A stretch of DNA of 64,000 nucleotides from contig JAJTBW010000001.1 in NCBI GenBank assembly GCA_021286705.1, positions 9,325 to 73,324 on the forward strand, in the 5' to 3' direction. A program made the translations under genes and the position numbers. Below the pieces are notes generated by a model, which saw only the letters and a program-made list of their open reading frames with translations, was not told where the DNA came from and did no database searches. This DNA comes from Sphingobacteriia bacterium. Its GTDB lineage: Bacteria > Bacteroidota > Bacteroidia > Bacteroidales > TTA-H9. Below are positions 18,099 to 62,600 of the stretch, one piece after another. How positions within the stretch are numbered: the first letter of the stretch is position 1; every line of letters starts with the position of its first letter.

Positions 18099-18100
18099 TT

Positions 18101-20238: not shown

Positions 20239-20271
20239 AATATCAATAGTTAATATAAAAAAGACATTAAA

Positions 20272-21279: not shown

Positions 21280-21282
21280 CAC

Positions 21283-22608: not shown

Positions 22609-22615
22609 TACAAAT

Positions 22616-41140: not shown

Positions 41141-41141
41141 C

Positions 41142-43159: not shown

Positions 43160-44626
43160 ATGCAGAAAAGATTTCTTTATGGAGCTTCTGTGCAAGGTAT
43201 ACAGAGCTTTATCTTTCAGACCAACAAGCTTAAAGAGATTGTTGGTGCCAGTGAATTGGTTGATAAAATTTGTACTGAATTTTTTCAAGATTCCTGCAAG
43301 TGTACCCCAATTGAGACGAACCTCAATTGGATCATTGGAGCGGCAGGTAATATCAAATATCTCTTCTCTAGTGAAGAAGAGGTAAAATCTGTTGTGTTAG
43401 ATTTTCCGAAAAAGGTGATGTTGATGGCGCCAGGTATTACCTTAAGTCAGGCTGTTGTTGAAGTTGAGGGTGATTTATCTGTAGATCACATCAGTGAACT
43501 AGAAGGGCTGTTGAAACTACAGCGAAATAGAATGGTTGATCCATTCTATTACGGTTATATGGCTACAGAGAGGAGTCGGCGAACCGGTGTTGTATCTTGG
43601 TCAAGCGGTTCTGATTATGAGGATTTACCATCTATTTTGAAAAAAGAACACAATGGAAAAGGGCTGCTAGAGAAAATTGGACATTCTCATCTTGAGAGGC
43701 AATTTGTTTTTGACATTGAAAGATTTGTTTCAAACGAGAAAAAAAGTTGGATTGCCGTCGTTCATGCTGATGGAAATTCCTTAGGAGTGGTAATTCAAAA
43801 ACTTTCAGCAGTACTTAAAGGCAAAGTTGGAAGTGAGATTGTGGAAAAGTATAGATCCTTTTCGCAAAACTTGGATATGGTTACTAGAGCGGCAGCCAAG
43901 GAGGCTTTTAGTGAGATTTTCAGTGATGAGATTAAAAATGGCACTGAGATTGGCTTTCGGCCAATTGTTATCGGTGGGGATGATCTAACGGTGATAATAC
44001 AAGCATCTAAGGCGGTTCCATTCACTCAATTATTTTTAGCCAAGTTTGAAAAGCTAAGCTCTGAGGTCTTTAAAGGATTCTTTAAATCAATAGGTCTGGA
44101 AAAGGAATGTTTAACAACCTGTGCAGGTATCTCTTTTGTTAAGTCTTCCTTCCCGTTCCATTATGCTGTTTCTTTAGCCGAGAATCTCTGCAAAAAAGCT
44201 AAAACGGCATCTAAGAATACTGATAGAGTGAACCCGCCATCTTCATTAGCTTTTTTTAAGGTGCAAAGTAGCTTTGTTGATGATCTGGATGAGATGATAA
44301 AGAAAGAATTGGTGTGTAAGAGTGATAGTTTATCTTTCTTTTATGGACCCTACTTCTTAAATCAAGAACCTTCAATTGCGCAACTCAGCAAAAAGGTTGA
44401 AAAATTGCGTGAAGAAAGAGCTCCGTCATCGCAGTTACGTCAATGGTTGACAGAACGTTATCATGATAAAGGTGCAGCAGATATGCTAATTGACAGAACC
44501 ATCGAGATATTGAGAAGAAAAAAACAGGGACATTTTATTAAAGATTTAGATCTTGAGTCATTAAAGGATAGTAATAATAAAGTTTGCCCGGTTTATGATT
44601 GGATTACGTTAAACTCTTTACAATAG
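43160..44626 (+). CDS. cas10: Cas10 (short, HD-less) with intact cyclase/polymerase palm motif
   Basis: The N-terminus FLYGASVQGIQSFIFQTNKLKEIVGAS is typical of Cas10 right after the HD position. Palm motifs are WIAVVHADGNSLG and PIVIGGDDLTVI (GGDD). Only 488 aa, with no H-D motif region. Confidence 0.8.
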   Translation: MQKRFLYGASVQGIQSFIFQTNKLKEIVGASELVDKICTEFFQDSCKCTPIETNLNWIIGAAGNIKYLFSSEEEVKSVVLDFPKKVMLMAPGITLSQAVVEVEGDLSVDHISELEGLLKLQRNRMVDPFYYGYMATERSRRTGVVSWSSGSDYEDLPSILKKEHNGKGLLEKIGHSHLERQFVFDIERFVSNEKKSWIAVVHADGNSLGVVIQKLSAVLKGKVGSEIVEKYRSFSQNLDMVTRAAAKEAFSEIFSDEIKNGTEIGFRPIVIGGDDLTVIIQASKAVPFTQLFLAKFEKLSSEVFKGFFKSIGLEKECLTTCAGISFVKSSFPFHYAVSLAENLCKKAKTASKNTDRVNPPSSLAFFKVQSSFVDDLDEMIKKELVCKSDSLSFFYGPYFLNQEPSIAQLSKKVEKLREERAPSSQLRQWLTERYHDKGAADMLIDRTIEILRRKKQGHFIKDLDLESLKDSNNKVCPVYDWITLNSLQ

Positions 44627-44631
44627 CAATT

Positions 44632-45243
44632 ATGAAAGATATTACTTATAGCATAAAGTTTTATTCACAATGGCATTGCGGCTCGGGCGAATCGCAAGGA
44701 GCCGATTTAGATGCGCTCGTGATTAAAGATAGACAAGGGTTGCCTTATGTGCCCGGAAAAACCGTTAAAGGGTTGGTTAGAGACTCTTTTTTGGAACTTG
44801 ATATAATTGGTTACTTCGACCACAAGGGAAAGGAAATTGAGATCTTTGGTTGTGGTTATGACTATAAACAGAAACCTAAAACTGACGATGGTAAAAAGGA
44901 GCAGGGAATAATCAACCAATCTAGGCTTTATTTTAGTAATGCTGTATTAAAAAGTGTTGTGAAAGATGAGATTGAAAAAGCATCACTCATCCCATTTTTA
45001 TTTAATAAAGTGACCAGAACCTCAATTGACGAAAAAGGAGTGGCAAATGAAATGTCATTACGCTCCATGGAGGTTACTGTACCAGTGGCCCTAACTGGTA
45101 AAATATTAAATGTGGAAGATCAGTATGTAGATAGTATTATAGATGCTATGAAGTTTATTAAACGATTAGGTAGTGGCCGGAATCGTGGACTTGGTAGATG
45201 TTCATTTGAGGTGTTGAATATATCAGAAAGGAGGACTATATGA
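44632..45243 (+). CDS. cas7: Cas7-family RAMP (Csm3/Cmr4-like)
   Basis: WHCGSGESQGADLDALVIKDRQGLPYVPGKTVKGLVRD is followed by the C-terminal G-rich loop RLGSGRNRGLGRCSF. The start is taken at MKDITY, just after the cas10 stop. Confidence 0.75.
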   Translation: MKDITYSIKFYSQWHCGSGESQGADLDALVIKDRQGLPYVPGKTVKGLVRDSFLELDIIGYFDHKGKEIEIFGCGYDYKQKPKTDDGKKEQGIINQSRLYFSNAVLKSVVKDEIEKASLIPFLFNKVTRTSIDEKGVANEMSLRSMEVTVPVALTGKILNVEDQYVDSIIDAMKFIKRLGSGRNRGLGRCSFEVLNISERRTI

Positions 45244-46697
45244 AGACTATAACATTTGTATGTAAGTTTTTAAGCGATGTGGTGTTGACTACTTCAGCTG
45301 CAACTGAAGGGGTTCATGCTTCTTTGGATTATATTCCGGGAGCTGTGTTCCTTGGTATTGTGGCTAAGAGGTATGACTCTTTCAAAGAACTAAATGCTGC
45401 ATATGATATCTTTCATAGTGGTAAAGTTCGTTTTTCTGATGGTCAAATATACCTGAATGGTCAACGCTCATTTAAGACGCCTTTACTTTGGTCAGCCCCA
45501 AAGTCAGAAGGGAAGAGTGGTGTTTTGACTTTTAGCGCAGCATGTAATAAGGAGCAGATGGCTGACAATCTTGCAAAGGGTCTGCAATTTAAGCAAATGC
45601 GAGATGGTTATTTTGTTTTAAATGGCAATGATGCTATAAAAGTGGAAATCGAGAAGCAATTCGCCTTAAAGTCGGCTCAAGACCGTGAGACCAGAAGAGC
45701 AAAGGAAGGGAGTATCTTTGGTTTTGAGTCTATTGCAGCTGGAACGACCTGGTGTTTTAGGATCGATATTGATTCAAGTGTTGAGCATCTTTCTGATAAA
45801 ATTGTAAAGGCTTTAATTGGAGTGCATCATATTGGGAAAAGTCGTTCTGCTCAATATGGGCTTGTGCAAATTGATGAGATTAAGCCCCTAGAAGTAAAGG
45901 CAGAGCTTTTTAAGGATCTATTTATTTATGCTGATTCTAATCTTTGTTTTTTCAATGAGTTCGGTTCCCCTACGTTTACGCCAACCGTTGAACAGCTAGG
46001 ATTTAAAAATATGAAGATAGACTGGAAGCGTTCTCAGATTAGAACTTCTAGTTATTCTCCATATAATCAACATCGAAAGAATAGAGACCAGGAGCGACTT
46101 TGCATTTCAAAAGGCTCGGTCTTTGTACTTACCGGAGAAACACCTTCTAATCTACCTAACAGGGCATTTGTTGGAGAGTATTTGAATGAAGGGTTGGGGC
46201 AGGTTTACTTGAATCCTTGGTTCCTTAAGTATGATGAGAAAACTTGTGAATTTGAGTTGAAACTTGGGAAAACTCAAGAACCTGATTTACTGCAAGATTA
46301 TGCTGCTGGTGAAGCGAATCGTTTTGATCAGGCTTTGTTAGCTTACTTACGGACTAAAAAGTCAGAAATCGGGGATAGTTTTTATATTACAAATGCTGTA
46401 AATGAATTTGTCACTAAAGCTAATGAATTTAGAGGGATCACGAAGAGTCAGTGGGGTGCGATAAGAAGTATTGCTGAGTCAAGTAAAGATGCAGATGAAT
46501 TAATGAATCAGTTATTCAATAATAGTAACGCTTATTTAACCCATGGAATTGCTGCAAATGACTGGAAAGAGTATGGTAGGTGCGATAAACTGAAGAAAAA
46601 TCTGCTAGAAGTAAAAGGGACGCTTAATTTAAATGAATATACTGTTCTTCTAGCTTCAGAAATGGCAAAGAAATCAAATAGAGAAAATTATGAGTAA
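45240..46697 (+). CDS. csx10: Csx10-like (Cas5-family) RAMP
   Basis: 485 aa. The N-terminus is LSDVVLTTSAATEGVHASLDYIPGAVFLGIVA and a later loop is IGKSRSAQYGLVQI. The position after cas10-cas7 is as in type III-D loci. Confidence 0.55.
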   Translation: MKTITFVCKFLSDVVLTTSAATEGVHASLDYIPGAVFLGIVAKRYDSFKELNAAYDIFHSGKVRFSDGQIYLNGQRSFKTPLLWSAPKSEGKSGVLTFSAACNKEQMADNLAKGLQFKQMRDGYFVLNGNDAIKVEIEKQFALKSAQDRETRRAKEGSIFGFESIAAGTTWCFRIDIDSSVEHLSDKIVKALIGVHHIGKSRSAQYGLVQIDEIKPLEVKAELFKDLFIYADSNLCFFNEFGSPTFTPTVEQLGFKNMKIDWKRSQIRTSSYSPYNQHRKNRDQERLCISKGSVFVLTGETPSNLPNRAFVGEYLNEGLGQVYLNPWFLKYDEKTCEFELKLGKTQEPDLLQDYAAGEANRFDQALLAYLRTKKSEIGDSFYITNAVNEFVTKANEFRGITKSQWGAIRSIAESSKDADELMNQLFNNSNAYLTHGIAANDWKEYGRCDKLKKNLLEVKGTLNLNEYTVLLASEMAKKSNRENYE

Positions 46698-48159
46698 GAA
46701 TAATTTGAGATATATAGCAAGGATCGTTGTTGAAGCAGCAACTCCTTTAGTTGTCGGTTCCGGAGAGGAGGGGTTAACAATTGACAAGTTAATTGCTCGT
46801 GATGTAAACGGACTCCCCATTATACCTGGGTCTGCATTGGCTGGTGTTTTCAGACATGAGTACAGTGCAACTAATGGTAGTGAAAAGGAGAATTATCTTT
46901 TCGGTTATCAAAGTAATAATAATGGAGAAGGGTCTAGAATATTCTTCACCAACGCCCATTTTGTTGGATCAAAGGGTGTTGTTTATGAGGGTTTTGAGCA
47001 TTCAGAAGAGATAAAAACGGATAAATTCGCTGAAGTATTCAAACACCTACCTATACGTCAACATGTCTCTATTGATCATAAAGGGGTAGCTAAGGATGCT
47101 GGTAAATATGATGAAGAGGTATTGTTTAAAGGTACGAGGTTCTGTTTTGAGGTTGAAGCGATCGATATTAACGAGGAAGATTGGTTGTCTTTGCTAAACT
47201 TGTTAAAACAAGATAGATTTAGAATTGGGTCTGGAACACGTAAAGGTTTTGGTGCTTTATCGGTTGTTTCTGCTTCTGCATACACCTATGATTTTACCAA
47301 GAAAACAGATGTTGATTTGTATCTGGATAAGAAGGCTTCCCTCAATTATCCGGTAAATTACTTTAATCCAATTGATTTAGTTGAATCAACCCAGGAGACA
47401 GATGAGTATGTTTTGAGAATTAAAGCTGATAATTTTTTCTTGTTTAGTTCAGGTTTTGCCTCCTCTGATGCCGATATTAATCAGGTTATGGAGGATATAG
47501 TTGTGTGGGATGGGCTTATTCCTGATTTTAAAAAGAATCAGGTGCTTATTCCTGCGACATCCATAAAAGGGGCGATCTCTCATAGGGTTGCTTTCCATTA
47601 TAACAAATTAAAGGGAATTTTTGCTGAAAATATCCATTCTTCGAATCTAATTACTGAGCTAGTAAAGGATGAATCTTATTTTAAAACGCTGATTGATCGT
47701 GAGCATTTTAATAGTTCATCACTTACTTCTTCTGAGTTATTTATAAACTTCAATCCGGCTGTTAGAGGTCTATTTGGCTATTCTGAAAATCCCTGTGATG
47801 ATAAAGACAAGAATCGGTATCAAAAGAATCGTGGTAATGTCATTTTTAATGATCTCTACCTCGATGCAAAGTGTGAGGATTTTAAGGTCTTTAACCATGT
47901 ACGGATCGATAGATTTACTCAAGGCTCTTACGCTGGAGCACTATTCAATGAAAAGGTCGCTGGCATTGGTGGTGAGTTTGATTTAACGATGGCAGTAAAT
48001 AAGAATATTCATTCTGATTATATAAAGTGTTTTGAAAAGGCGTTGCTTGATATTGTTAACGGTATTCTTCCTTTAGGTGGAAGAACAATGCTTGGTCATG
48101 GCATGTTTAGTGGAAAATTGTTCAAAAATAAAACTGAAATTAGTTATGATTCATTATAA
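46690..48159 (+). CDS. Fusion of two Cas7-like RAMP domains
   Basis: Two RAMP units are present. Unit 1 is VVGSGEEG...NGLPIIPGSALAGVFRH ... RIGSGTRKGFGALSV. Unit 2 is IPATSIKGAISHRVAFH ... LPLGGRTMLGHGMFSG. Confidence 0.7.
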   Translation: MSKNNLRYIARIVVEAATPLVVGSGEEGLTIDKLIARDVNGLPIIPGSALAGVFRHEYSATNGSEKENYLFGYQSNNNGEGSRIFFTNAHFVGSKGVVYEGFEHSEEIKTDKFAEVFKHLPIRQHVSIDHKGVAKDAGKYDEEVLFKGTRFCFEVEAIDINEEDWLSLLNLLKQDRFRIGSGTRKGFGALSVVSASAYTYDFTKKTDVDLYLDKKASLNYPVNYFNPIDLVESTQETDEYVLRIKADNFFLFSSGFASSDADINQVMEDIVVWDGLIPDFKKNQVLIPATSIKGAISHRVAFHYNKLKGIFAENIHSSNLITELVKDESYFKTLIDREHFNSSSLTSSELFINFNPAVRGLFGYSENPCDDKDKNRYQKNRGNVIFNDLYLDAKCEDFKVFNHVRIDRFTQGSYAGALFNEKVAGIGGEFDLTMAVNKNIHSDYIKCFEKALLDIVNGILPLGGRTMLGHGMFSGKLFKNKTEISYDSL

Positions 48160-48565
48160 GCAACATAATACGTTAGAAACGTTACCAAACAAAGAGTATC
48201 ATGGTTATTTATGGTTTGCCGACTGTGAATTTCCTGAGGTGATTGATGGTTTTCTATCGGGAAAACTCATGAGTAGAGATAATACATTTATTGTAGAAGG
48301 AAATCTGATGTCAAAGGATAATTTAACTTCTGTATCCATTAAACAGGTAGGATCTACGCAGTTTATAATGGAATTCAATCATAAGGATATTTCTGAAGAT
48401 AGAGCTTTGCAATTTAATGATTTAACCTATATTCCTCATAAATTGCCTGGTTTTAAAGAGATTGTTTTTAGACAGGTTTGGATTGCTGAGAGTGATGAAA
48501 ATTGTTGTAATTGGCCTACTTACAGACCAAAGTATCAGTATTTTGTAGAACTTAAAAAAGATTAG
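48146..48565 (+). CDS. Small protein inside the effector operon (139 aa); occupies the position of cas11/csx19-type genes
   Basis: The ATG at 48146 overlaps the upstream stop by 14 nt. I recognise no motif, and the sequence does not look strongly helical. Confidence 0.4.
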   Translation: MIHYKQHNTLETLPNKEYHGYLWFADCEFPEVIDGFLSGKLMSRDNTFIVEGNLMSKDNLTSVSIKQVGSTQFIMEFNHKDISEDRALQFNDLTYIPHKLPGFKEIVFRQVWIAESDENCCNWPTYRPKYQYFVELKKD

Positions 48566-48567
48566 TC

Positions 48568-50883
48568 ATGGTTTTAATGAAAGCACCTTTTAATTTTGTC
48601 CCATTAAATCAACATGTCTACTATCCTGATTGGGCAGAACAAGTTTCTCAAGATATTCCTTTCAGCGATGGTTTGAGCGGCCAAATAGAGTTGACTATCG
48701 AGGCGGAGAGTCCTATCTATATTAGAAATGGTTTCTCGGTTAATGAGTTAAAATCTGAGAATAAATCTGGGGATTTTGTCTCTAATAGTTTTTGGAATTT
48801 TAATGGTCAGTATTTTATTCCTGGCTCAAGTCTCAAAGGAATGATTCGCAATATTTTTGAGATTATAAGCTTTAGTAAGATGCCAACTGATCCAAGAATG
48901 CGTTTTGCCAGAAGAGACATGTTAGCAAATAATAGGAGTAATATTTATCCTCTTAAGAATATTACGGAACAAAAGGAAATTCGCTGTGGGTGGTTGTCTA
49001 TGAATGATAATTCTTATGTAATTAAAGATTGCGGACATCCATATAGAATTAGTCATAAAGAGCTTGATAAAATTTTTGGTTCTGAGTTATTTGAGAATCA
49101 TTTTTCCAAAGTAAAAGGCAAGGATTTGTCAAAGCCTATAGACCGCTTAAATCCTAAGATGGCTAAATTTAAATATAAACTCATTGAAAAAAATGGATTG
49201 AGCAAATATTTGAAAGGCTCTTTTGTAAAAGATGAAGCCAATAGAAAAGCTACTTACGAGGATGGAAAAGGGAGTCGTGGTGAAATAGTATTTACTGGCC
49301 AGCCAGATAGATGGGATTTTCCTAGAAATAAAGATAGCAAAGGAAAATTTAACGAGTTTGTGATTTTTGAAGATGAGCTTGGTTCAGACTATAAGATTTC
49401 GAGAGAGGTCTTTAATCAATACAACTTCTTTATGGATGATTCTGAAGATTGGCTTTATTGTCTATCCAAGATAAAAGAGGGTAATAGGTATCCTGTTTTT
49501 TTTCGTTTCGAATCAGAAGAGTCAGAAGAGGCTAAGAAAGTTAAAGACTTTGGATTGGCATTTATGTATCGCCTTCCATATATAAAAGGGGTCTCACAGT
49601 TAGTCGATGAGTTTCAAGAGCCCAATGGAATTGATTTAGCTGAGGCTGTTTTTGGATTTACTGAACTTAAGAAAGTTAAACTAGAAAGGAATAAGAAGGT
49701 TGTTGAGAAAATAAATGGGTCCTTAAAATCAAGGGTTCATTTTGGGCATGCCTTTGCTGAGGCAAATTCTATTACTCTGGCGGATCAGATTACAGGATGT
49801 TTGGCGGGACCTAAAGCGTCTTATTATCCCATTTATATTAGGCAACGGGAGGTGGATCCGGATAAAGGAAAGTATTACCAGACTTATGATAATGGCGTGA
49901 TTAGTGGCTGGAAGCGATATCCCTTAAAGGAGAGTGTTCAACTATTACCTAAAATCGGAGATAAAATGGATACGACCTTCGTTCCTGTTGAAAAGGGGGC
50001 GAAGTTTTCGGGAAAGATTACTTTTCATAATTTACGTCCGATAGAATTGGGATGTTTGTTATCTGCAATAACTTTTCACAACAATCCAGAGTACCGTCAC
50101 TCTTTAGGGATGGCAAAACCTTATGGCTATGGAAAAGTAAAGATTGAATCCAAGTTGAAGGTTTTTGATGAGAATAGTCTAGATATTGATGGTTATCTGG
50201 TAGCCTTTGAGAAGAAAATGAATGAGTTCTTAGCAACTAAGAGGTTGGGTAAGTGGTTTTCAACAGAGCAGATTGAAGAGTTATTTGCGATGGCCGACCC
50301 CAAGCGGGTTAATAAGGAAAATTCTGATCAACTTAACTATCTTAACCTTGGTGGAGGCAATGCTGGAGCAAATGAATTTCTGAAGATTAAAAAGCAAAAC
50401 GATTTCCTACATCCTTTTACCTCTGTATTTAAAGGCGGGACTTCAAGAGTTAGTCCGTTGGATTCTTATTTAGCTCGTGAAAAAGCTAATCAGGAAAAAA
50501 TGGAAGAGGAGGCTCGGGAAGCTGAGAAGCGTATGATTGAGGAGCAAGAGATGCAACGTAAGCTTGCCGAACAAGATCGATTAGATAATAAAAAACAGGA
50601 ATACCTTGAACAAGGGCTGGCTCTTTTTCTTAATTCACCTTCGTTTAGCCGATTTTTGGATAAGTGTGATGACTATAAAAAGAAGTTACAGCTAGAGGTT
50701 ATTCCAGAAGATCAACATGGTATAATCATACAAGTCATTGAGTCTTTCAATAAAACCGACAAGGAATTTTTAAAAGAAACAAGAAAAGGTGGCTTCGAGA
50801 AAGGTCGATCTTGGCTTCGATTGCAAAAGCTAATAGGAGAGAAACCTGCTTATAAGATGTTTCAATTGATCTCCAATCCATAG
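48568..50883 (+). CDS. Large RAMP protein (Cas7/Csm5-like, TIGR03986-like) with insertions and a K/E-rich coiled-coil C-terminal extension
   Basis: The N-terminus is APFNFVPLN...LSGQIELTIEAESPIYIRNG...FIPGSSLKGMIRN, and the G-rich loop is SLGMAKPYGYGKVKI. The C-terminal ~170 aa begin EKANQEKMEEEAREAEKRMIEEQEMQRKLAEQDRL. Confidence 0.65.
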   Translation: MVLMKAPFNFVPLNQHVYYPDWAEQVSQDIPFSDGLSGQIELTIEAESPIYIRNGFSVNELKSENKSGDFVSNSFWNFNGQYFIPGSSLKGMIRNIFEIISFSKMPTDPRMRFARRDMLANNRSNIYPLKNITEQKEIRCGWLSMNDNSYVIKDCGHPYRISHKELDKIFGSELFENHFSKVKGKDLSKPIDRLNPKMAKFKYKLIEKNGLSKYLKGSFVKDEANRKATYEDGKGSRGEIVFTGQPDRWDFPRNKDSKGKFNEFVIFEDELGSDYKISREVFNQYNFFMDDSEDWLYCLSKIKEGNRYPVFFRFESEESEEAKKVKDFGLAFMYRLPYIKGVSQLVDEFQEPNGIDLAEAVFGFTELKKVKLERNKKVVEKINGSLKSRVHFGHAFAEANSITLADQITGCLAGPKASYYPIYIRQREVDPDKGKYYQTYDNGVISGWKRYPLKESVQLLPKIGDKMDTTFVPVEKGAKFSGKITFHNLRPIELGCLLSAITFHNNPEYRHSLGMAKPYGYGKVKIESKLKVFDENSLDIDGYLVAFEKKMNEFLATKRLGKWFSTEQIEELFAMADPKRVNKENSDQLNYLNLGGGNAGANEFLKIKKQNDFLHPFTSVFKGGTSRVSPLDSYLAREKANQEKMEEEAREAEKRMIEEQEMQRKLAEQDRLDNKKQEYLEQGLALFLNSPSFSRFLDKCDDYKKKLQLEVIPEDQHGIIIQVIESFNKTDKEFLKETRKGGFEKGRSWLRLQKLIGEKPAYKMFQLISNP

Positions 50884-50917: not shown

Positions 50918-50963
50918 TGATCAGCATCTATAGAAAACTTCAGTTTTCTATAGATGCTGATCA
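50918..50963 (+). terminator. Perfect 21-bp-stem hairpin (loop TTCA) followed by a T-rich tract; terminator or attenuator between effector genes and CARF genes
   Basis: TGATCAGCATCTATAGAAAAC (50918-50938), TTCA, GTTTTCTATAGATGCTGATCA (50943-50963), then AAGCTTTATGTTTTTCTTTT. Confidence 0.6.
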
Positions 50964-50993: not shown

Positions 50994-52094
50994 ATGAAGG
51001 ATAAATCTCTCATTCGAAATGTTGTGATGCTTTTGGTCTCAGATCAACCAGTGTCAAATCTATTGTTTTGTAGAAATCTTGACTTGGAAATTGATGAAGT
51101 CGTGCTTTTTACGACCACAAAGATGGAGCGAAGTGGAGTTACAGATAATCTAATAAACGTACTTAACTTAACCTGTGAAATAAAGAGAATAGTTATATCT
51201 AATACAGATTATCTGGATGCCTATTCTTTATTAAGTGAGATTAAAAGTGATGGCCAGAGGCTTCTTGTGAATTTAACTGGAGGTAATAAGATTATGGCTA
51301 TGGCTGTTTATGATGCTTTTAGAGATCATGGTGGGTGTCGTTTTTATTATAGTCCGGTGGGTGGTGATTTATTCACATGTTTCAATGACCCAGATGCGTC
51401 ATTTTCTATTAGAAGGAATCTAAATGTATCTGAGTATTTGAACTCATACGGCATTGGTTTTAACCATTCTGAGAATTGTATCGCTAACTTTAAGGAGGCG
51501 GAAATGATCATGCGGTTACACCAAAAATATAAATTTAATAGAAGAAGAGTGCTGAATTATTTGGAGTCCAATAAAAGTGATTATGTCGAGTTCAAGAAGT
51601 ACTATGAAGGGGGCTGGTTTGAGGAATATTTGTATTATTCTATAAAAAAGCACTTGAATTTAGGCGATGATGAGATCTATTTAGATGTTGAACTGATAGC
51701 TGATCAAGAGACTGGTAGAGTAGTTAATGAGTTAGATGTAGCATTTGTATATAAGAGTGATCTGTATATTATAGAAGCTAAAGCGAATGTTACATCAAGA
51801 GGCGTATATAATATTAACCCACTTGAAAGCAGTCGTCCAAAGGTTAGTGTGGCCGACGACAAGCCGTTAGGTCAATACTTGTATAAGCTTGCTGCTGTTA
51901 ATAAGTTACTTGGTATACGTACTCAATGTGTATTAGCTACCTTAACAGATCTTCGTTCTGGTGGTGAGGACTTTAACAGAACACTTCAAGACAGAATGAA
52001 AATTCTTGATATTCATCATTTAATTGATAGATATGAATTTATTAACGATGAAAATTTTAGTAAACGAATAAATTATTTAGTAAAAAACTTTTAG
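50994..52094 (+). CDS. CARF + PD-(D/E)xK nuclease, Card1/Can2-like (DUF1887-type), copy 1
   Basis: The N-terminal Rossmann-like CARF is VMLLVSDQPVSNLL...VNLTGGNKIMAMAV. The C-terminal nuclease motif is ELDVAFVYKSDLYIIEAKAN. Confidence 0.7.
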   Translation: MKDKSLIRNVVMLLVSDQPVSNLLFCRNLDLEIDEVVLFTTTKMERSGVTDNLINVLNLTCEIKRIVISNTDYLDAYSLLSEIKSDGQRLLVNLTGGNKIMAMAVYDAFRDHGGCRFYYSPVGGDLFTCFNDPDASFSIRRNLNVSEYLNSYGIGFNHSENCIANFKEAEMIMRLHQKYKFNRRRVLNYLESNKSDYVEFKKYYEGGWFEEYLYYSIKKHLNLGDDEIYLDVELIADQETGRVVNELDVAFVYKSDLYIIEAKANVTSRGVYNINPLESSRPKVSVADDKPLGQYLYKLAAVNKLLGIRTQCVLATLTDLRSGGEDFNRTLQDRMKILDIHHLIDRYEFINDENFSKRINYLVKNF

Positions 52095-52096
52095 TT

Positions 52097-53302
52097 ATGA
52101 AAAAACTTTTGGTTAATTTAATTAGCGAGCAGACCATTCCAGTTTTGCTTTCTATAAATTCATTTCCCGAGGCGAAGCATCATCTGTTTATTACAACTCG
52201 AAAAATGGAGGATGCTGAGACAGGACGGCGAAGTTTATGGTTAAAAAAGGCAGCTAATTTGGATCCTGTTAATGTTGTGGTGACAGAGGTTTTGGCTGAT
52301 GATTATAATGATATTATGGCTAAGCTCGGATCTGAGCAGATGGAGGATTATTATAAGGAGTTTGATGAGATTATTGTTAATATTACAGGTGGAAATAAGC
52401 TGATGTCTATCGCTGTGAATGAATTTTTTAAGGGAAAAACAGAGAATATCTACTATTTGCCAATTCATAATGAAACATACGTTATTCCTAATAACCCATT
52501 GTATAAGAAGACAGTTAACTCATTGCTGAGTATCGAGACCTATTTAGGTGCCTGTGGTTTGCATAAGACTGATAAACGTGTTTCCTTTAAGCAACCACTT
52601 AACTCTCCTCGGGCATTTACATTTGAGGAGTTGGAGCGACTATTAGGTGAGTTTTTGGTAAATGAGGAGCTAAGAGCCAAGAGTGAGCGGTTAAGATTAC
52701 TGTTTAGAGCAGATGATTCTGTATATCGATTTAAAAAGGACAAATTGGATTATTCTGTTTTGCCGGAAGCAGATGAGATAGATGAGATATTAACTAGTTT
52801 TGGGTTCTCACCTGATGAAATGATTGGGAAGAAGACGGTGGATTTTATCACGGGTGGTTGGTATGAAGAATATGTATACTATTTAGTTTGCAGTATGTTT
52901 GAGAAGGAGGGATTAGTTCCTGTGGGTTATGACTTAGAAGATTTTGTGAAAATTGGAGTGCAATTATCACCTAAAGCTGGTGATGAATTTAAGGCTAAGT
53001 ATTTTACTTCTAATGACCTTGACGTTATATTCATTCTTAATTCGAAGCTATATGTTATCGAATGTAAAAGTGGCGGAATGGATAAGACGTATGACTATAA
53101 TAGAACTGTATATATGCAAAGTGCTCTGAGGAAATATTTTGGACTGAGTGTTACTTCAGTTTTATGTACATTGTCTTCTGTAAGCGAGGAAAATATGGAG
53201 AAAGCGAAGGTTTTTGGAATAAAAGTATTAGACAAAAGTTATTTTGCTAATTCTATCAATGAAAAAAGCATAAAAGATTTTTCACAATCAAAGAGAGATT
53301 AA
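52097..53302 (+). CDS. CARF + PD-(D/E)xK nuclease, Card1/Can2-like, copy 2
   Basis: The CARF is LVNLISEQTIPVLL...VNITGGNKLMSIAV and the nuclease motif is DLDVIFILNSKLYVIECKSG. It starts 2 nt after copy 1. Confidence 0.7.
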   Translation: MKKLLVNLISEQTIPVLLSINSFPEAKHHLFITTRKMEDAETGRRSLWLKKAANLDPVNVVVTEVLADDYNDIMAKLGSEQMEDYYKEFDEIIVNITGGNKLMSIAVNEFFKGKTENIYYLPIHNETYVIPNNPLYKKTVNSLLSIETYLGACGLHKTDKRVSFKQPLNSPRAFTFEELERLLGEFLVNEELRAKSERLRLLFRADDSVYRFKKDKLDYSVLPEADEIDEILTSFGFSPDEMIGKKTVDFITGGWYEEYVYYLVCSMFEKEGLVPVGYDLEDFVKIGVQLSPKAGDEFKAKYFTSNDLDVIFILNSKLYVIECKSGGMDKTYDYNRTVYMQSALRKYFGLSVTSVLCTLSSVSEENMEKAKVFGIKVLDKSYFANSINEKSIKDFSQSKRD

Positions 53303-54025: not shown

Positions 54026-55009
54026 ATGGAGCTAATATTAAATAGTTTTGGTACAACTTTATCGAGGGAGAATGACCAATTTGCAGTGTCACATGCTGAT
54101 GGTAAACAATTGATTCATCCTTCAGAAATCAAATGCATTTCTATAAGTAAAGGGGCAAGAATAACTTCTGATGCCGCACTGCTTGCTATCGATAATGAGA
54201 TAGATGTACTGTTTATTGATAAAAAGGGGATGCCAAAAGGGCGCATCTGGAGTTCAAAATATGGTTCAATCAGTACAATAAGAAGAAAGCAGTTAGATTT
54301 TACCTTCAATGAGATGGCTGTAGAATGGATAAAGGATGTTATACGCCAGAAGTTAGAGAATCAGATTGCTTTGCTTTATAGTAGTTGCCCTGTTGATCGA
54401 TTAAATGATGTCTCTTTCAATAGATTATTGAATCGGATAAAAGACTATTCGGTTAAGATTGAAGGTCTTAATGGTGGGATTGTTCAGGACGTAGCTTCCT
54501 CGTTAAGGGGCTGGGAAGGTGCTGCAGGAAAGATATATTTTGAGACGTTATCAACGTTTTTGCCAGAAGAGTATAAGTTTCAAGGAAGGAGTCAAAATCC
54601 TGCTGTTGATTTGTTCAATGCATTATTAAATTATGGTTATGGGATATTGTATGGCAAGATAGAGGGTGCAATGATCAGAGCAGGGATTGATCCTTATGTA
54701 GGTGTTTTTCATCGTGACGATTATAACAGGCCAGTGTTGGTCTTTGATGTGATAGAGTTATATAGAGTCTGGGTGGATTATGTTGTTTTTAATTTATGTA
54801 AACAGAAGGCTATCGGGGAGGAGTGCTATAGTAGGCGCCCTGATGGTTCCGTTTGGTTGGAGATTCTTGGAAGAAGAATTCTTATTCAATCGATCAATGA
54901 CTATTTTGATGAAGTTATACTCATTAAAGGACTTGAAAGAACGCGACTTACGCATTTGGAATTGTATTGTCAGAATCTAGCTCAGTATTTTTTAAAAGGG
55001 AAGTGGTAA
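54026..55009 (+). CDS. cas1: Cas1 integrase
   Basis: 327 aa with EGAAGKIYF, NALLNYGYGILY and GIDPYVGVFHRDDYNRPVLVFDVIELYR, the conserved E/H/D catalytic region. Confidence 0.9.
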   Translation: MELILNSFGTTLSRENDQFAVSHADGKQLIHPSEIKCISISKGARITSDAALLAIDNEIDVLFIDKKGMPKGRIWSSKYGSISTIRRKQLDFTFNEMAVEWIKDVIRQKLENQIALLYSSCPVDRLNDVSFNRLLNRIKDYSVKIEGLNGGIVQDVASSLRGWEGAAGKIYFETLSTFLPEEYKFQGRSQNPAVDLFNALLNYGYGILYGKIEGAMIRAGIDPYVGVFHRDDYNRPVLVFDVIELYRVWVDYVVFNLCKQKAIGEECYSRRPDGSVWLEILGRRILIQSINDYFDEVILIKGLERTRLTHLELYCQNLAQYFLKGKW

Positions 55010-55010
55010 T

Positions 55011-56018
55011 ATGTTAATGCGTGGAAAAAATATAACGGCCAGTGGTGACCCGTTACAACCGATTGAATTAACTCACTTTTTTAGATCTATTGTCAATCCT
55101 ACAGAGGAGCTTATACAACGAATAGATCAATTACGCATAGTGAGTACCTTGGATCAGGTGAGGTATCGTCAGCTAAAGACAACCTTGCCCTATGTGGTTT
55201 GTGGCAGTTATCATCCTGCTATCAGGAAGACCTCCAGTTTTGCATCCATTGAGTGTTTTATCCTCGATTTTGACCATCTAAACAGTAAAAATATTGAAAT
55301 AAAAGATTTCAAGGCGAAGATGCGAGAGGATTCCAGAATCTTGATGCTTTTTGAATCGCCGAGTGGAGATGGATTAAAAGTGTTGTTTAAATTAGATGAA
55401 AAATGTTATGATCCTGGTGTATATAGGCTGTTTTATAAACTATTCGCAAAGAGCTTTTCTATAGAATATGGTTTAGATCAAGTAGTAGATGAGCGGACAA
55501 GTGATGTTACTAGAGCTTGTTTTTATAGTTATGATAGAGATGCATGGTTAAATGAGGCAGTCACTCCAATAAAAATATCGAATTACCTTAATTTGGAAGA
55601 GATAAGTCAGGTAGATGCTTTATTGAAAGAAATTAGAAACGATGTCAAGGAGGAAAAGAAGGAGGAACGTGAGGCAAAAGTAAGTGCATCAGCTGATACA
55701 TTAAAGGAAATAAGATCCATGCTCCTACCTAAGGCTAGGCCGATTGAGAAGGATGTGTTTGTTCCAGAAGAACTTAAGGGGCTTGAAGAAATGATTAAGG
55801 TTAGATTGGAGAGTACCCCGATTAAGGTCGTGTCTAGTGAATCTATCCAATATGGCAAGAAGGTGAAATTTGAAATGGAGACCGTAAAGGCTGAGGTAAA
55901 TGTATTTTATGGCAAGAAGGGTTTCTCGGTTGTTTCAACAACTAAGACAGGGACAAATCCGGAGTTTGCACAGTTATGTAAGGAATTGCTTGAAGATCTG
56001 TTGATACATCGGAGTTGA
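55011..56018 (+). CDS. Primase-polymerase (AEP superfamily, VirE-N/BT4734-like) encoded between cas1 and cas2
   Basis: The DxD motif is FILDFDHL, the SxxGxG motif is FESPSGDGLKVLFKL, and a further motif is DVTRACFYSYDRD. It starts 1 nt after the cas1 stop and ends just before cas2. Confidence 0.65.
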   Translation: MLMRGKNITASGDPLQPIELTHFFRSIVNPTEELIQRIDQLRIVSTLDQVRYRQLKTTLPYVVCGSYHPAIRKTSSFASIECFILDFDHLNSKNIEIKDFKAKMREDSRILMLFESPSGDGLKVLFKLDEKCYDPGVYRLFYKLFAKSFSIEYGLDQVVDERTSDVTRACFYSYDRDAWLNEAVTPIKISNYLNLEEISQVDALLKEIRNDVKEEKKEEREAKVSASADTLKEIRSMLLPKARPIEKDVFVPEELKGLEEMIKVRLESTPIKVVSSESIQYGKKVKFEMETVKAEVNVFYGKKGFSVVSTTKTGTNPEFAQLCKELLEDLLIHRS

Positions 56019-56031
56019 TTTGTGTTTTTTT

Positions 56032-56496
56032 ATGAAGAAGAGTAGCGAATTGACTTTTGTTCGGAAGGTACTTGCTTTAAAGAAGGCAGGTATTGGTATT
56101 AGTCCTCCGATTATTCAAGAACAGGAGGAGTTAATTTCTTTAGAAGAGCGATGTCAAAAGTTATTAGGTATCGTAAGAGAAAGGAGGAAGTCAACAGATA
56201 TGGTTTTCTTTGTGATGTATGATATTGAAAATGATAAAGTTCGCCGATATGTTTCAAAGTACTTGGAGAAAAAGGGATATTTAAGAGTCCAGAAGTCGGT
56301 CTTTCTTGGCAAAGCAGATCGAAATGAGTTTAATAAAGTAGGCGATACTTTGAGAAAGGTGAATGAGATCTATGAAAATGAAGATAGTATAGTGCTAATC
56401 CCGGTTTCTAGCGATGAGTTGACAAGCATGGAGTTGATAGGGAAAGATGTGAATATAAAAGCCTATTATGATAAACCTGGAACTCTGTTTTTTTAG
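56032..56496 (+). CDS. cas2: Cas2 with ~55-aa N-terminal extension
   Basis: The core MVFFVMYDIENDKVRRYVSKYLEKKGYLRVQKSVFLG is a typical Cas2 beta1-alpha1-beta2. The ORF opens at TTG 56020 and the first ATG is at 56032. Confidence 0.85.
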   Translation: MKKSSELTFVRKVLALKKAGIGISPPIIQEQEELISLEERCQKLLGIVRERRKSTDMVFFVMYDIENDKVRRYVSKYLEKKGYLRVQKSVFLGKADRNEFNKVGDTLRKVNEIYENEDSIVLIPVSSDELTSMELIGKDVNIKAYYDKPGTLFF

Positions 56497-56619: not shown

Positions 56620-59600
56620 CTGAGGAACCCTCTTCCAGAATAATAAGGATTAAGACAAATTACTTACTTGATAATTTGGAAACTCAATAATTGCTGAGGA
56701 ACCCTCTTCCAGAATAATAAGGATTAAGACTATTATCACGCTGTTCGAGTTGGAATATTACTTCTCTACTGAGGAACCCTCTTCCAGAATAATAAGGATT
56801 AAGACTCCGCACTAGTCGTTCTATCCATATCATACTTAATCCTGAGGAACCCTCTTCCAGAATAATAAGGATTAAGACTTCCTTGTTACATCTGGACTCT
56901 CGAAGAGACATAAACTGAGGAACCCTCTTCCAGAATAATAAGGATTAAGACTCTATGTTCCTTGTTACATCTGGACTCTCGAAGAGACATCTGAGGAACC
57001 CTCTTCCAGAATAATAAGGATTAAGACCTTCTAGCAAGTTTTCTGCCGCTGTATCAGCGACAGCTGAGGAACCCTCTTCCAGAATAATAAGGATTAAGAC
57101 ACTAAATAATTGTTCTAAAGATTGTACTAAGTTAGCTGAGGAACCCTCTTCCAGAATAATAAGGATTAAGACTGAACGAGAGAGCTAGGTTTGGTTCCGA
57201 AATCTTTAACTGAGGAACCCTCTTCCAGAATAATAAGGATTAAGACTGAATAACACTTTTGCTTCAGTTGGAGAAGATTCTGAGGAACCCTCTTCCAGAA
57301 TAATAAGGATTAAGACTTGTTATGAATCTCAACTCTTGGGCACAGTTGTGAGCTGAGGAACCCTCTTCCAGAATAATAAGGATTAAGACACCCTCTTTAT
57401 TTTGCGCTTCAGTATTATTTATTGCCTGAGGAACCCTCTTCCAGAATAATAAGGATTAAGACGGAGCTTTAATGTCAGTACCTTCAGCGAGGCTTAAAGC
57501 TGAGGAACCCTCTTCCAGAATAATAAGGATTAAGACCCCTTCTTTTGCTTTAAATTCAGCCAAAGAAACAACACCTGAGGAACCCTCTTCCAGAATAATA
57601 AGGATTAAGACACCTTCTTTATTTTTTCTTTGGTGATTATAACTATATCTGAGGAACCCTCTTCCAGAATAATAAGGATTAAGACTCTGCAAGAGGTATC
57701 TTATAATCCTATATGTGGATCTGAGGAACCCTCTTCCAGAATAATAAGGATTAAGACGTCTGAACCCCTTCTTTTGCTTTAAATTCAGCCAAACTGAGGA
57801 ACCCTCTTCCAGAATAATAAGGATTAAGACAGTTTATTACCTTCAATTATTTCTTCTTTAGTCATCTGAGGAACCCTCTTCCAGAATAATAAGGATTAAG
57901 ACCCTTAACACTACCAGCCTCTACGAAGTAGAGGAAAATGCTGAGGAACCCTCTTCCAGAATAATAAGGATTAAGACTTCATTTACGCTGAATGTTTGTT
58001 GAAGTTATTTAAAGCTGAGGAACCCTCTTCCAGAATAATAAGGATTAAGACAACGAATAAAAGCTCTTCCGTGAATCTTGGCATTCTGAGGAACCCTCTT
58101 CCAGAATAATAAGGATTAAGACAAGTAAAGATAGATGCTAATACTAGCATCCTTTTTAGTTCTGAGGAACCCTCTTCCAGAATAATAAGGATTAAGACCA
58201 CTTTTATAGTGCCTGCTTCAACGAAATATAAGAAACTGAGGAACCCTCTTCCAGAATAATAAGGATTAAGACTCTTAGTTGGGAATTTCCCAACAGGAAT
58301 AACTTTCCTGAGGAACCCTCTTCCAGAATAATAAGGATTAAGACAGTTACAGTTGTTGTTGTAGTGTACACAACAAAAGACTGAGGAACCCTCTTCCAGA
58401 ATAATAAGGATTAAGACTCCTGACAATCTGGCTTACAATAAAGAAAACAAACCTGAGGAACCCTCTTCCAGAATAATAAGGATTAAGACGAGGAAAATAC
58501 TAACTTTAGGATCTTTCTTGGTAGCTGAGGAACCCTCTTCCAGAATAATAAGGATTAAGACCCAGTTGCAACACTGATGTTCCAATAATCTCCTGATTTC
58601 TGAGGAACCCTCTTCCAGAATAATAAGGATTAAGACACTAACCAAAGGCAATCGTCTTTAAATTCATTAAGATTCTGAGGAACCCTCTTCCAGAATAATA
58701 AGGATTAAGACCAACAGGAATAACTTGTACTTTCATAACAATTCTACTGAGGAACCCTCTTCCAGAATAATAAGGATTAAGACCCTTTTTCTTATTCTGC
58801 ATTCAGGAGTTCCACTTCAAGTCTGAGGAACCCTCTTCCAGAATAATAAGGATTAAGACTTGATATACTTGCTTAGTATAATTACAATATTGAAACCTGA
58901 GGAACCCTCTTCCAGAATAATAAGGATTAAGACCTGTTTGTATCTTGCGATAGCGTTGCATTTTTTAAATCTGAGGAACCCTCTTCCAGAATAATAAGGA
59001 TTAAGACTTCGACGTAGCCGGATGGCATCGCAATAGTTGGATCGCCTGAGGAACCCTCTTCCAGAATAATAAGGATTAAGACATGATAGCAACGTATAGG
59101 CCGGCTGCGTTTCCGGGGTCTGAGGAACCCTCTTCCAGAATAATAAGGATTAAGACAGCACCTGTTGCAACGGAGATATTCCAATAATCCCCCTGAGGAA
59201 CCCTCTTCCAGAATAATAAGGATTAAGACCCTGTTGAATAACTGCTTTACATAATCTTTGTCTAACCTGAGGAACCCTCTTCCAGAATAATAAGGATTAA
59301 GACAGCTTACTACTTTTTGTAAGCTTTCCTTTTCTTCATCTGAGGAACCCTCTTCCAGAATAATAAGGATTAAGACGGAACTAGCACGCACTTTCACAGT
59401 GCCAGCCTCTACTGAGGAACCCTCTTCCAGAATAATAAGGATTAAGACACACTCATGTACACTCTCAATTAACTAATTTACAAGCACTGAGGAACCCTCT
59501 TCCAGAATAATAAGGATTAAGACGAGGAGCCGAAGCCCCTCCGGGTTATTTTAAATCTCTGAGGAACCCTCTTCCAGAATAATAAGGATTAAGACTCTTC

Positions 59601-62600
59601 ACATGCTGAATTAATAGCTGCATCCTCAGTGCTGAGGAACCCTCTTCCAGAATAATAAGGATTAAGACGACCTTTGGGAGAGGTAGATCGTGTAAACTTT
59701 TTACACTGAGGAACCCTCTTCCAGAATAATAAGGATTAAGACCAATGGCGAATGTGTTCTCTGAATCGTCCTTTACTCCTGAGGAACCCTCTTCCAGAAT
59801 AATAAGGATTAAGACATAACAAGGGCGATAATTAGTTTAATCATTTTGTCCTGAGGAACCCTCTTCCAGAATAATAAGGATTAAGACATGCTATTATATC
59901 GTCTCCACAACGTTTAGTAGGATCGCTGAGGAACCCTCTTCCAGAATAATAAGGATTAAGACGTAGCAACTTAAGTGCTTTGTCTGGATATTTCATAAGG
60001 CTGAGGAACCCTCTTCCAGAATAATAAGGATTAAGACTAAGTTTTCTATATACATATGCCAATCCGTCTTTCTCTGAGGAACCCTCTTCCAGAATAATAA
60101 GGATTAAGACTCAAAGATGAAGTTGGTATGCATATCTACATACCATCTCCTGAGGAACCCTCTTCCAGAATAATAAGGATTAAGACAGGAAGAGGCACGT
60201 ACTTTAACACTGCCAGCCTCTCTGAGGAACCCTCTTCCAGAATAATAAGGATTAAGACATTACGTAAGATTTTGATACTACTGGATAATTTCTGAGGAAC
60301 CCTCTTCCAGAATAATAAGGATTAAGACTGTATATGAAGTACTGTTTTCATAATCTTCACATTTCACTGAGGAACCCTCTTCCAGAATAATAAGGATTAA
60401 GACTATGTATAGAATTTTGGCTGCAACCCAATTGGAGATCTGAGGAACCCTCTTCCAGAATAATAAGGATTAAGACTGTAGGTAGTTTCTTCTTTATAAG
60501 CTTTATAATAACTGAGGAACCCTCTTCCAGAATAATAAGGATTAAGACTAAAGGTAAATACTAATTTTAGGATCTTTTTTTAGTACTGAGGAACCCTCTT
60601 CCAGAATAATAAGGATTAAGACTGTTATTGTTATTTTGGATTGTTGCATTTTACACCTAACTGAGGAACCCTCTTCCAGAATAATAAGGATTAAGACTCA
60701 ATTACACCATCAGTTAAAATTAATTCCAATAGCTGAGGAACCCTCTTCCAGAATAATAAGGATTAAGACAGTTCTCTTACTGATTATGGCTGAATCAGAC
60801 CCAGGCTGAGGAACCCTCTTCCAGAATAATAAGGATTAAGACTTCTTCAGAAAACTCTTTAGGAGAATATTCTTGTTTACTGAGGAACCCTCTTCCAGAA
60901 TAATAAGGATTAAGACAACCTCAGAAATGTATAATTGTTTGGATTGTTGTGCTGAGGAACCCTCTTCCAGAATAATAAGGATTAAGACCATTTCACTCCT
61001 CGATAAAGTACTAAACATTCCAGCTGAGGAACCCTCTTCCAGAATAATAAGGATTAAGACAAACCACTTGGATTAGGATCAGTAAAATTGGTTTCTACTG
61101 AGGAACCCTCTTCCAGAATAATAAGGATTAAGACCCTCGTAGACTTCTTCATAACCCTCTTCTAATAAGACTGAGGAACCCTCTTCCAGAATAATAAGGA
61201 TTAAGACATTGGGGTATTTACGCTTTTCGTAATTCAACTTAGCGCTGAGGAACCCTCTTCCAGAATAATAAGGATTAAGACCTGCACCGATAAGGCGCCT
61301 GCCTGACAGATTGACGACACTGAGGAACCCTCTTCCAGAATAATAAGGATTAAGACACCGCTTGTTTGGCGAACTTGTAAGCCTTGGTTCCTGAGGAACC
61401 CTCTTCCAGAATAATAAGGATTAAGACCTGTTGTTTTCGTACTGATCCAGAAGCACTTCTAAAAGCTGAGGAACCCTCTTCCAGAATAATAAGGATTAAG
61501 ACTCATCATATTCCCTTGTAAGGGATCCCTTTAATATGCTGAGGAACCCTCTTCCAGAATAATAAGGATTAAGACCATTCCTTGCCGTATTTTGCCACGA
61601 ATTTTTGACCGCTGAGGAACCCTCTTCCAGAATAATAAGGATTAAGACTTACCTATTATTTCACATACTTCTTTATCCAATGTACTGAGGAACCCTCTTC
61701 CAGAATAATAAGGATTAAGACATTATTTACAATGAATCTTTGAATAGCTTGGCGGAAAACTGAGGAACCCTCTTCCAGAATAATAAGGATTAAGACTTTT
61801 TTGGATTGTTATTTTGCATTTTACACCTAAAACTGAGGAACCCTCTTCCAGAATAATAAGGATTAAGACCTACTATTCTCATAGTCTTCACAAAGGACTT
61901 CAAAAGACTGAGGAACCCTCTTCCAGAATAATAAGGATTAAGACCGCCACTAATTTAGTTAATTGTTCTTTTTCCTTTTCTGAGGAACCCTCTTCCAGAA
62001 TAATAAGGATTAAGACCGCTAACAGATATGCGTTTCATTATCTGTGATCCGGCTGAGGAACCCTCTTCCAGAATAATAAGGATTAAGACTCATAACTCAT
62101 TGATTAACCGTTTAAGAAACTCAACTGAGGAACCCTCTTCCAGAATAATAAGGATTAAGACCATCTTTTACATTGTGTTTATAATAGGAGTTTATGGACT
62201 GAGGAACCCTCTTCCAGAATAATAAGGATTAAGACTCTCGTTGTACTGGTATTTACCAAAGTTTGTTAAGATACTGAGGAACCCTCTTCCAGAATAATAA
62301 GGATTAAGACGCCCAGTTTTCAGTTTATTGAGATGAATATCAAGGTCTGAGGAACCCTCTTCCAGAATAATAAGGATTAAGACCTCCAAACAGATATTTA
62401 TGTATAGTTTTTGTATTTCTGAGGAACCCTCTTCCAGAATAATAAGGATTAAGACAATTAACCCCTTTTTTTATTCAGCAGGATTCAGCAACCTGAGGAA
62501 CCCTCTTCCAGAATAATAAGGATTAAGACGGGTTGAAATCTGCGAGGTAATTGTAGGTAGTATAACTGAGGAACCCTCTTCCAGAATAATAAGGATTAAG

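Follow-up and report, generated by a model that had tools for sequence, protein, structure and literature searches.

A pair of adjacent nuclease genes in the type III-D CRISPR locus of a Sphingobacteriia bacterium (Bacteroidota; assembly GCA_021286705.1) probably encodes two independent nucleases, each activated by cyclic tetra-adenylate (cA4); together with a Csx20 ring nuclease, they would form a single, co-transcribed ancillary cassette. The stretch analyzed, referred to here as the window, comprises 64,000 nucleotides (nt) of contig JAJTBW010000001.1 (positions 9,325 to 73,324 of the forward strand); coordinates are those of the window unless a locus number precedes them. The genes of the cassette are as follows, with protein lengths in amino acids (aa):

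50994..52094, + strand: can2-A (hereafter A), a Card1/Can2-family effector of 366 aa
52097..53302, + strand: can2-B (hereafter B), a Card1-like effector of 401 aa
53302..53682, + strand: csx20, a putative cA4 ring nuclease of 126 aa (PADLOC PDLC01397)

The A/B junction reads TAG-TT-ATG, giving a spacing of 2 nt with the two open reading frames (ORFs) in different reading frames, and the csx20 start overlaps the can2-B stop codon by 1 nt. An earlier reading of this DNA, made from the letters and the ORF translations alone (the sequence-only reading), had given the coordinates, both lengths, and the 2-nt spacing exactly, as verified from the ORFs and the junction sequence. That reading had also called both proteins Card1/Can2-like, with CARF and PD-(D/E)xK domains, and this was borne out by Pfam, PADLOC, structure-sequence, and Foldseek matches.

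A and B were confirmed as genuine full-length CARF + PD-(D/E)xK proteins of the Card1/Can2 family, with similarity far above chance. The Pfam domain CARF_Card1 (PF23400, curated cut-off 24.6 bits) was matched at 82.2 bits by A and 93.2 bits by B, and Card1_endonuc (PF09002, curated cut-off 26.4) at 39.6 and 58.1 bits, respectively. The PADLOC model CARF4--CARF_PDDEXK was matched with E values of 1.3e-44 for A and 1.7e-45 for B. Among sequences of crystal structures, A matched Card1 (1.3e-18) and Can2 (6.9e-13), and B likewise matched Card1 (1.1e-28) and Can2 (2.1e-11); profiles of the A and B clades reached Card1 with E values of 3e-59 and 4e-55. AlphaFold2 models built from the clade alignments had pLDDT (predicted local distance difference test) values of 90.0 for A and 87.4 for B. 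The top Foldseek match in the PDB for both models was cA4-bound Card1, 6xl1 (template modelling [TM] score 0.70 and E 2e-21 for A; 0.74 and 1.3e-26 for B), followed by VC1899, Can2, TbrCan2, and Cdn1.

In A, the CARF domain (~10-148) is joined by a short two-helix linker of about 50 aa (~150-200) to the PD-(D/E)xK nuclease domain (~201-345). In B, the CARF domain (~5-149) is followed by a Card1-like helical insertion of about 95 aa (~150-245) and then the nuclease domain (~246-381). This inter-domain region is the main difference between the two models. A and B are 22% identical over nearly their full length (E 5e-12), in agreement with their earlier description as clearly diverged, and their CARF domains are approximately 25-30% identical. 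A and B belong to different clades of Can2, both of them old.

The hallmarks of the Can2 family are the CARF motif NxTGGTK and the nuclease signature E-ExD-(E/S)CK (PMC10783487), and the cA4 contacts common to Can1 and Can2 are Ser19, Thr42, Lys99, and Tyr118 in SthCan2 numbering (PMC7969007). The positions mapped in the two proteins were as follows:

A, cA4-contact equivalents: S16, T41, K99, and Y119 (profile alignment to 7bdv)
B, cA4-contact equivalents: S10, T34, K101, and Y120 (family alignment; the direct alignment to 7bdv covers K101 and Y120 only)
A, nuclease residues: E210, E246-L-D248, and E261-A-K263
B, nuclease residues: E257, D307-L-D309, and E322-C-K324

The motifs in question are NLTGGNKIMA (N93-K99), NELDVAF, and YIIEAKAN in A, and NITGGNKLMS (N95-K101), NDLDVIF, and YVIECKSG in B. 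The nuclease motifs quoted in the sequence-only reading were present, but its '(T/I)GGNK' was slightly garbled, the true motif being N(L/I)TGGNK. In both proteins NxTGGTK is present with a single T-to-N change (GGNK) that keeps the phosphate-binding lysine, and the variants in the catalytic motifs are conservative, with Ala for Cys in A (EAK) and Asp for the first Glu in B (DxD). The mapped contact and nuclease positions were invariant or almost so within the respective A and B clades, and the catalytic and ligand motifs of the A clade were invariant with or without a second Can2 in the locus. GGNK was common in the A subclade, including members that have no Can2 partner (P0002 and P0003). Loss of catalytic or ligand-binding residues in one copy, an outcome named in the sequence-only reading, was checked for; both copies were complete, with all catalytic and cA4-contact positions intact in A and B, and the idea of one degenerate copy was ruled out. 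On these data, both proteins are apparently competent in catalysis and in ligand binding. From the four contact residues and the presence of Csx20 we infer that the ligand of A and B is cA4.

We compared approximately 175 related loci (L-numbers denote loci and P-numbers proteins), of which 80 came from species-representative genomes and 80 from metagenomes, both sets obtained via the B-clade alignment; contigs of individual A- and B-clade proteins made up the remainder. ORFs were called mechanically, annotation was by clade hidden Markov models and phmmer seeds, and relatives of A and B were taken from a protein database. Tandem Can2-family genes were present in 32 of 166 loci overall and in 17 of the 80 species-representative genome loci; they were nearly always on the same strand, with a gap of 24 nt or less in most. 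The gene following an A-clade gene (22 non-redundant cases) was a B-clade Can2 in 5, a Can2 of another clade in 7, a CARF-HEPN (Csx1-like) gene in 7, and neither in 3. When 9 A-clade proteins were looked up independently of B, a second Can2 was absent in 8 and present in 1. B-clade genes (n = 12) had an A-type gene upstream in 6 cases and none in 5 (L006, L088, L089, L091, and L092), and 1 was not assessable. In L037, L114, L032, L134, and L148, the position following the big RAMP gene is either taken by CARF-HEPN or empty. The gap between A and CARF-HEPN genes ranged from -14 to +14 nt, such that spacing was equally tight whichever effector came after A.

Two suspicions about the genes neighboring A and B were checked and rejected. 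A hidden, diverged A-type partner upstream of the solo B genes was not the case, as Pfam identified RAMP, DUF4143, and Cad1 + NUDIX proteins there instead. The proteins of 436-580 aa that follow A-clade genes in L002, L169, and L171 were considered as B-type but are actually CARF-HEPN (Csx1-like) proteins, some of them fused to Csx20. As side observations, NUDIX and Cad1 genes adjoin B-clade Can2 in L089 and L167, and one Card1-family protein (P0144, 536 aa) has a NUDIX-like N-terminal extension.

On a neighbor-joining (NJ) tree of the 21 A-clade tips of known context, at least 5 switches of downstream partner were counted (4-6, mode 5, over 100 bootstraps), a count near the label-shuffle null. 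The closest sequence relatives of the window's A were P0003 and P0002 (42-44% identity), both followed by CARF-HEPN, and the A proteins of other A-B pairs were 31-32% identical to it. A mirror-tree comparison over 22 pairs gave a Pearson correlation of 0.51 and a Spearman correlation of 0.21; these values carry no information, as genes inherited together in an operon would be correlated in any case. An exhaustive profile search yielded 4307 family representatives, 780 of them at E <= 1e-30; no protein with two Card1 modules and no Can2-Can2 fusion was present among the best 150 of the 4307. Taken together, these data show that the ancillary cassette is modular and combinatorial and has been shuffled across relatives, and that A and B neither strictly co-occur nor co-diverge.

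The third gene of the cassette was matched to PADLOC PDLC01397 with an E value of 1.4e-27 over model positions 1-113 of 114. Its score against the NCBIfam CAS_Csx20 equivalog was 29.6 bits, and because this is under the 70-bit cut-off, we regard the window's Csx20 as a diverged member. In CARF-HEPN-Csx20 fusions, the C-terminal domain shares 40% identity with it, and a PDB sequence search with the window's Csx20 returned spurious matches only. A representative Csx20 has been determined by experiment to be a cA4-specific ring nuclease, and loci of the Can1-2 class carry a ring nuclease in 66% of cases (PMC12409355). Adjacency of an effector gene and csx20 was found in at least 36 loci. Fusions of CARF-HEPN to Csx20 (PADLOC CARF_HEPN_CSX20, 8e-137) were found in three places:

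L169:7019-8731
L171:6999-8741
L173:6041-7717

In addition, a protein of 537 aa (P0275) is a Card1-family protein with a Csx20-like C-terminus. The effector-Csx20 link is the conserved association of the cassette, also via gene fusion.

Card1 of Treponema succinifaciens (6wxw/6xl1) and Can2 (SthCan2, 7bdv; TbrCan2, 8q3y) are homodimeric, cA4-activated CARF-PD-(D/E)xK nucleases. A and B resemble them in their two Pfam domains, motif order, fold (TM ~0.7), cA4-contact and E-ExD-ExK residues, and location in a type III locus whose Cas10 is cyclase-competent. B is nearest to Card1, with 30% identity in structural alignment and the Card1-like insertion domain, while the ~50-aa linker of A resembles the Can2 clade that has no insertion domain (PMC10783487). 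They differ from Card1 and Can2 in having NxTGGNK for NxTGGTK, EAK for ECK in A, and DxD for ExD in B. They also differ in that two family members of different clades are encoded side by side; a literature search of limited coverage found no description of a tandem or heterodimeric Can2/Card1.

Can1 of Thermus thermophilus (TTHB155, 6sce) pairs two CARF domains with an active nuclease domain and a degenerate nuclease-like one, and a single chain with a degenerate N-terminal nuclease-like domain is its hallmark (PMC7969007). A and B are like Can1 in presenting two non-identical CARF + nuclease modules consecutively and in a distant similarity of fold, 6sce being ranked 22nd by Foldseek for both models (TMq ~0.52-0.53). 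In contrast to Can1, a stop codon plus 2 nt separates them into two ORFs, each with an intact nuclease domain, and the modules form no conserved unit across relatives. The upstream protein, A, keeps E210, E246, D248, E261, and K263 and so has no N-terminal degeneration of the Can1 type. Comparison of the clade profiles with Can1 6sce was not significant (E 0.43 for the A clade and 0.32 for the B clade), and the PADLOC Can1 model matched A at no better than 2.4e-5, via its C-terminal half.

Type III loci in which several effectors share one activator are common (PMC11229360). The window's cassette is like the multi-effector loci that combine Can1-2, Csx1, and Csx20 (PMC11229360, PMC12409355), in which several cA4-dependent effectors are followed by Csx20. 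In sister loci of A/B the second slot is held by a Csx1-like CARF-HEPN, at times fused to Csx20. Unlike the surveyed multi-effector loci, both effectors of the window are of one class (Can1-2). Cdn1 (8z4i/9u49) belongs to the same domain family as A and B, with an E value of 4.9e-22 for the A profile and a Foldseek TM of 0.75 for A against 9u49, but is only 14-18% identical to them. This Card1-family nuclease is activated by more than one cyclic oligoadenylate (cOA; PMC12825302), its structures being with cA3 (8z4i) and cA4 (9u49).

The sequence-only reading had proposed that A and B could form an obligate heterodimer, an evolutionary intermediate on the way from Can2 to Can1; such a pair would be an unfused analogue of Can1. 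Such a complex would fit the 2-nt gap and fixed gene order, the recurrence of tandem Can2 pairs in 17/80 genome loci (32/166 overall), the unusual GGNK in both proteins, and the precedents of Can1 and Csm6-2, which show that duplicated CARF effectors can become asymmetric units (PMC7969007, PMC11229360). We nevertheless consider an A/B heterodimer quite unlikely. It is disfavored because co-occurrence is loose, partners have been switched repeatedly, neither copy is degenerate, and no specific kinship to Can1 was found. The clades are not dependent on one another: CARF-HEPN occurs as often after A, 5 of the 11 assessable B-clade loci have no A-type gene, and the partner type is repeatedly shuffled on the A-clade tree (the 4-6 switches noted above). 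Spacing is equally tight with partners that are not Can2, catalytic and ligand residues are kept in what would be both subunits, and the best 150 of the 4307 family representatives include no Can2-Can2 fusion. In the models, the CARF-nuclease linkers are unequal in length by about 45 residues, so that CARF:CARF and nuclease:nuclease contacts would be hard to accommodate geometrically within one dimer. The same holds for the evolutionary part of the proposal: similarity to Can1 was insignificant (E 0.3-0.4) compared to that with Card1 (3e-59 and 4e-55), and there was no complementary degeneration. A weaker form, in which A and B in this lineage would at least form a facultative asymmetric heterodimer with two different CARF halves on cA4 and two distinct active nuclease sites, we hold to be very unlikely. 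If true, the pair would be the first heteromeric Can2 without fusion, offering a present-day model of the duplication step before Can1, and GGNK in both proteins would be co-adaptation of one composite ligand pocket. A heteromeric pair would show how Can1-like asymmetric sensors arose, but the evidence makes a heteromer unlikely.

The alternative offered by the sequence-only reading was that A and B are separate effectors responding to different cOAs or cutting different substrates. Separate effectors are better supported by the modularity of the cassette, but different cOAs are disfavored by the two sets of cA4-contact residues and by Csx20. A full version of the latter, in which A and B are independent homodimers tuned to different cOAs (e.g., cA4 versus cA3/cA6) and more than one Cas10 product is read, is unlikely in our estimation. 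It draws on the low identity of the two CARF domains, the age and distinctness of the two clades, and the response of Cdn1, within the same family, to two cOA species (PMC12825302). However, both proteins retain the four cA4 contacts that Can1 and Can2 have in common and carry the same NxTGGNK variant; Csx20, the cassette's sole ring nuclease, acts specifically on cA4, and cA4 effectors and ring nucleases are found together (PMC12409355); and multi-effector loci typically share one activator (PMC11229360). The least probable of these alternatives is that one paralogue is a regulatory or backup copy that mainly buffers cA4, acts as a decoy for it, or insures against phage inhibitors of the other copy, and is not a second front-line nuclease. 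Anti-CRISPRs are commonly countered by redundant effectors, and specialized copies do exist, as the upstream genes with diverged CARF motifs in L039, L069, L076, L104, and L126 (described below) demonstrate. However, the catalytic and ligand motifs of A and B are complete, the motifs of the A clade are invariant with or without a second Can2, and a dedicated off-switch, Csx20, is already encoded.

Several observations weigh against our interpretation of A and B as two independent cA4-activated nucleases. A complex would also be compatible with the gap of 2 nt and the constant order of A before B. B is the sole GGNK member of its clade (alignment A1, 27 sequences, and the tabulated B-clade ORFs), and its occurrence in A as well could point to a ligand pocket that the two share or that has co-adapted. 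The NJ tree groups the window's A with the A of L003, which likewise has a B-clade partner; this particular A-B combination may thus be of long standing. Regarding the sample, the comparison contigs are metagenomic and often short, the trees are distance-based (NJ) only, and most loci were retrieved by searching with the B clade, a bias that raises the proportion of A genes found beside a Can2. Finally, cA4 as the ligand is less certain given that a Card1-family relative, Cdn1, takes more than one cOA (PMC12825302).

If A and B are independent cA4-activated nucleases, the cassette could operate as follows. Binding of target RNA by the III-D complex would lead the GGDD cyclase of Cas10d to make cA4, which would bind across the CARF dimer of A and that of B. 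A would most probably pair with A and B with B, in line with the homodimers seen in every solved Can2/Card1 structure. Binding of cA4 would then cause the PD-(D/E)xK sites to cut single-stranded DNA or RNA or to nick DNA, as expected from the family, and Csx20 would degrade cA4 and reset the system, as family biochemistry suggests. A and B probably differ in substrate preference or kinetics, which would provide layered or redundant defense.

A strongly diverged, Card1-like clade ('type C') was observed upstream of canonical Can2 in 7 loci:

L039:7221-8348, type C gene
L069:6508-7656, type C gene
L076:6913-8004, type C gene
L104:46-1158, type C gene
L126:246-1385, type C gene
L012:452-1525, type C gene
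L095:2362-3435, type C gene

The gap to the canonical Can2 was -4 to 7 nt in 4 of the 7 loci and 113-293 nt in the other 3. Their CARF motifs are degenerate (e.g., NISSGTK.W, GGQP, and no TTxxME), and ExD and ECK are retained. These genes are better candidates for heteromeric or regulatory partners than A and B of the window. P0038, which falls near type C on the NJ tree with uncertain placement, is solo in a III-B locus.

The locus that contains A and B is type III-D, with Cas10d (GGDD), Cas5_IIId, Csx19, Cas6, cas1, cas2, and a CRISPR array all present. The features surrounding the cassette are listed below:

42488..43156, + strand: cas6 (Cas6b-like; PADLOC Cas6 3.3e-53)
43160..44626, + strand: cas10d, a short Cas10 with an intact GGDD cyclase motif, IVIGGDDLTV (PADLOC Cas10d 5e-141; NCBIfam Cas10/Cmr2; translation)
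44599..45243, + strand: Cas7-type RAMP (weak NCBIfam Csm3/Cmr4 matches)
45240..46697, + strand: cas5, subtype III-D (PADLOC Cas5_IIId 4.8e-134)
46690..48159, + strand: RAMP protein with two RAMP stretches, a fused Cas7-like protein (Pfam RAMPs 1.2e-37)
48077..48565, + strand: csx19, Cas11-like small subunit (PADLOC Csx19 8.2e-21, residues 37-161)
48568..50883, + strand: large type III RAMP protein of the TIGR03986 family (NCBIfam TIGR03986 272.5 bits, cut-off 161)
50918..50963, + strand: perfect 21-bp hairpin (dG -32.7 kcal/mol, z -6.5)
54026..55009, + strand: cas1 (ORF; the phmmer seed finds Cas1 genes of related loci that bear Pfam Cas_Cas1)
55011..56018, + strand: CRISPR-associated primase-polymerase, PrimPol_Db (NCBIfam NF040562 375 bits, cut-off 200)
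56020..56496, + strand: cas2 (ORF; the equivalent in L167 bears Pfam CRISPR_Cas2)
56620..64000, + strand: CRISPR array of 100 identical 37-nt repeats (CTGAGGAACCCTCTTCCAGAATAATAAGGATTAAGAC), continuing past the end of the window

The GTG called mechanically as the start of csx19 probably lies upstream of the true start codon. The array, with at least 100 perfectly identical repeats, is unusually long and uniform. A spacer of 110 nt separates the last effector-complex gene from can2-A, and the hairpin lies within it, 30 nt ahead of the can2-A start codon; it could serve as a terminator/attenuator or as an operator marking off the ancillary cassette. A sigma-70 and terminator consensus scan around the A and B genes did not call it and gave nothing above shuffled sequences, and an Rfam scan of the window gave no match. 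Strong hairpins also precede A-type genes in L073, L050, and L176 and are unrelated to that of the window.

Just upstream of the III-D genes are a RecD/PIF1-like helicase (37619-39061, + strand; PADLOC PDC-M16A 1.6e-118) and a WYL-domain protein in divergent orientation (39094-40107, - strand). PIF1-like helicase and WYL genes are located inside the CRISPR locus of the relatives L003, L167, L171, and L176. Between the WYL gene and cas6 are two ORFs of 192 and 325 aa (40562-42119, + strand) with no NCBIfam or PADLOC match.

Elsewhere in the window, a low-GC (31-35%) operon at 14311-24196 (+ strand) resembles an Eleos-type defense island with extra components. Its products are a Peptidase_C39-like protein (14879-16135), an Hsp70-like ATPase (18101-19303), and two dynamin-like GTPases (16128-18098 and 22616-24196) that match PADLOC LeoBC/LeoA at up to 1.8e-19. 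The N- and C-terminal domains of a GH38 (alpha-mannosidase-like) protein are split over two ORFs at 8881-12329 (- strand), in a patch with a GC content of 51% compared to approximately 35% in the rest of the window.

As it stands, the cassette of A, B, and Csx20 is a well-formed but ordinary multi-effector type III-D cassette whose parts belong to known families; the recurrent tandem arrangement of Can2 is a modest addition to what has been described. Tandem Can2-family genes are present in about one-fifth of the sampled Can2 loci, a duplication that class-level surveys miss because they score each class once per locus. A and B provide a natural system in which to ask why a locus keeps two nucleases of the same family, whether for a split of substrates, a difference in kinetics, or redundancy against anti-CRISPRs.

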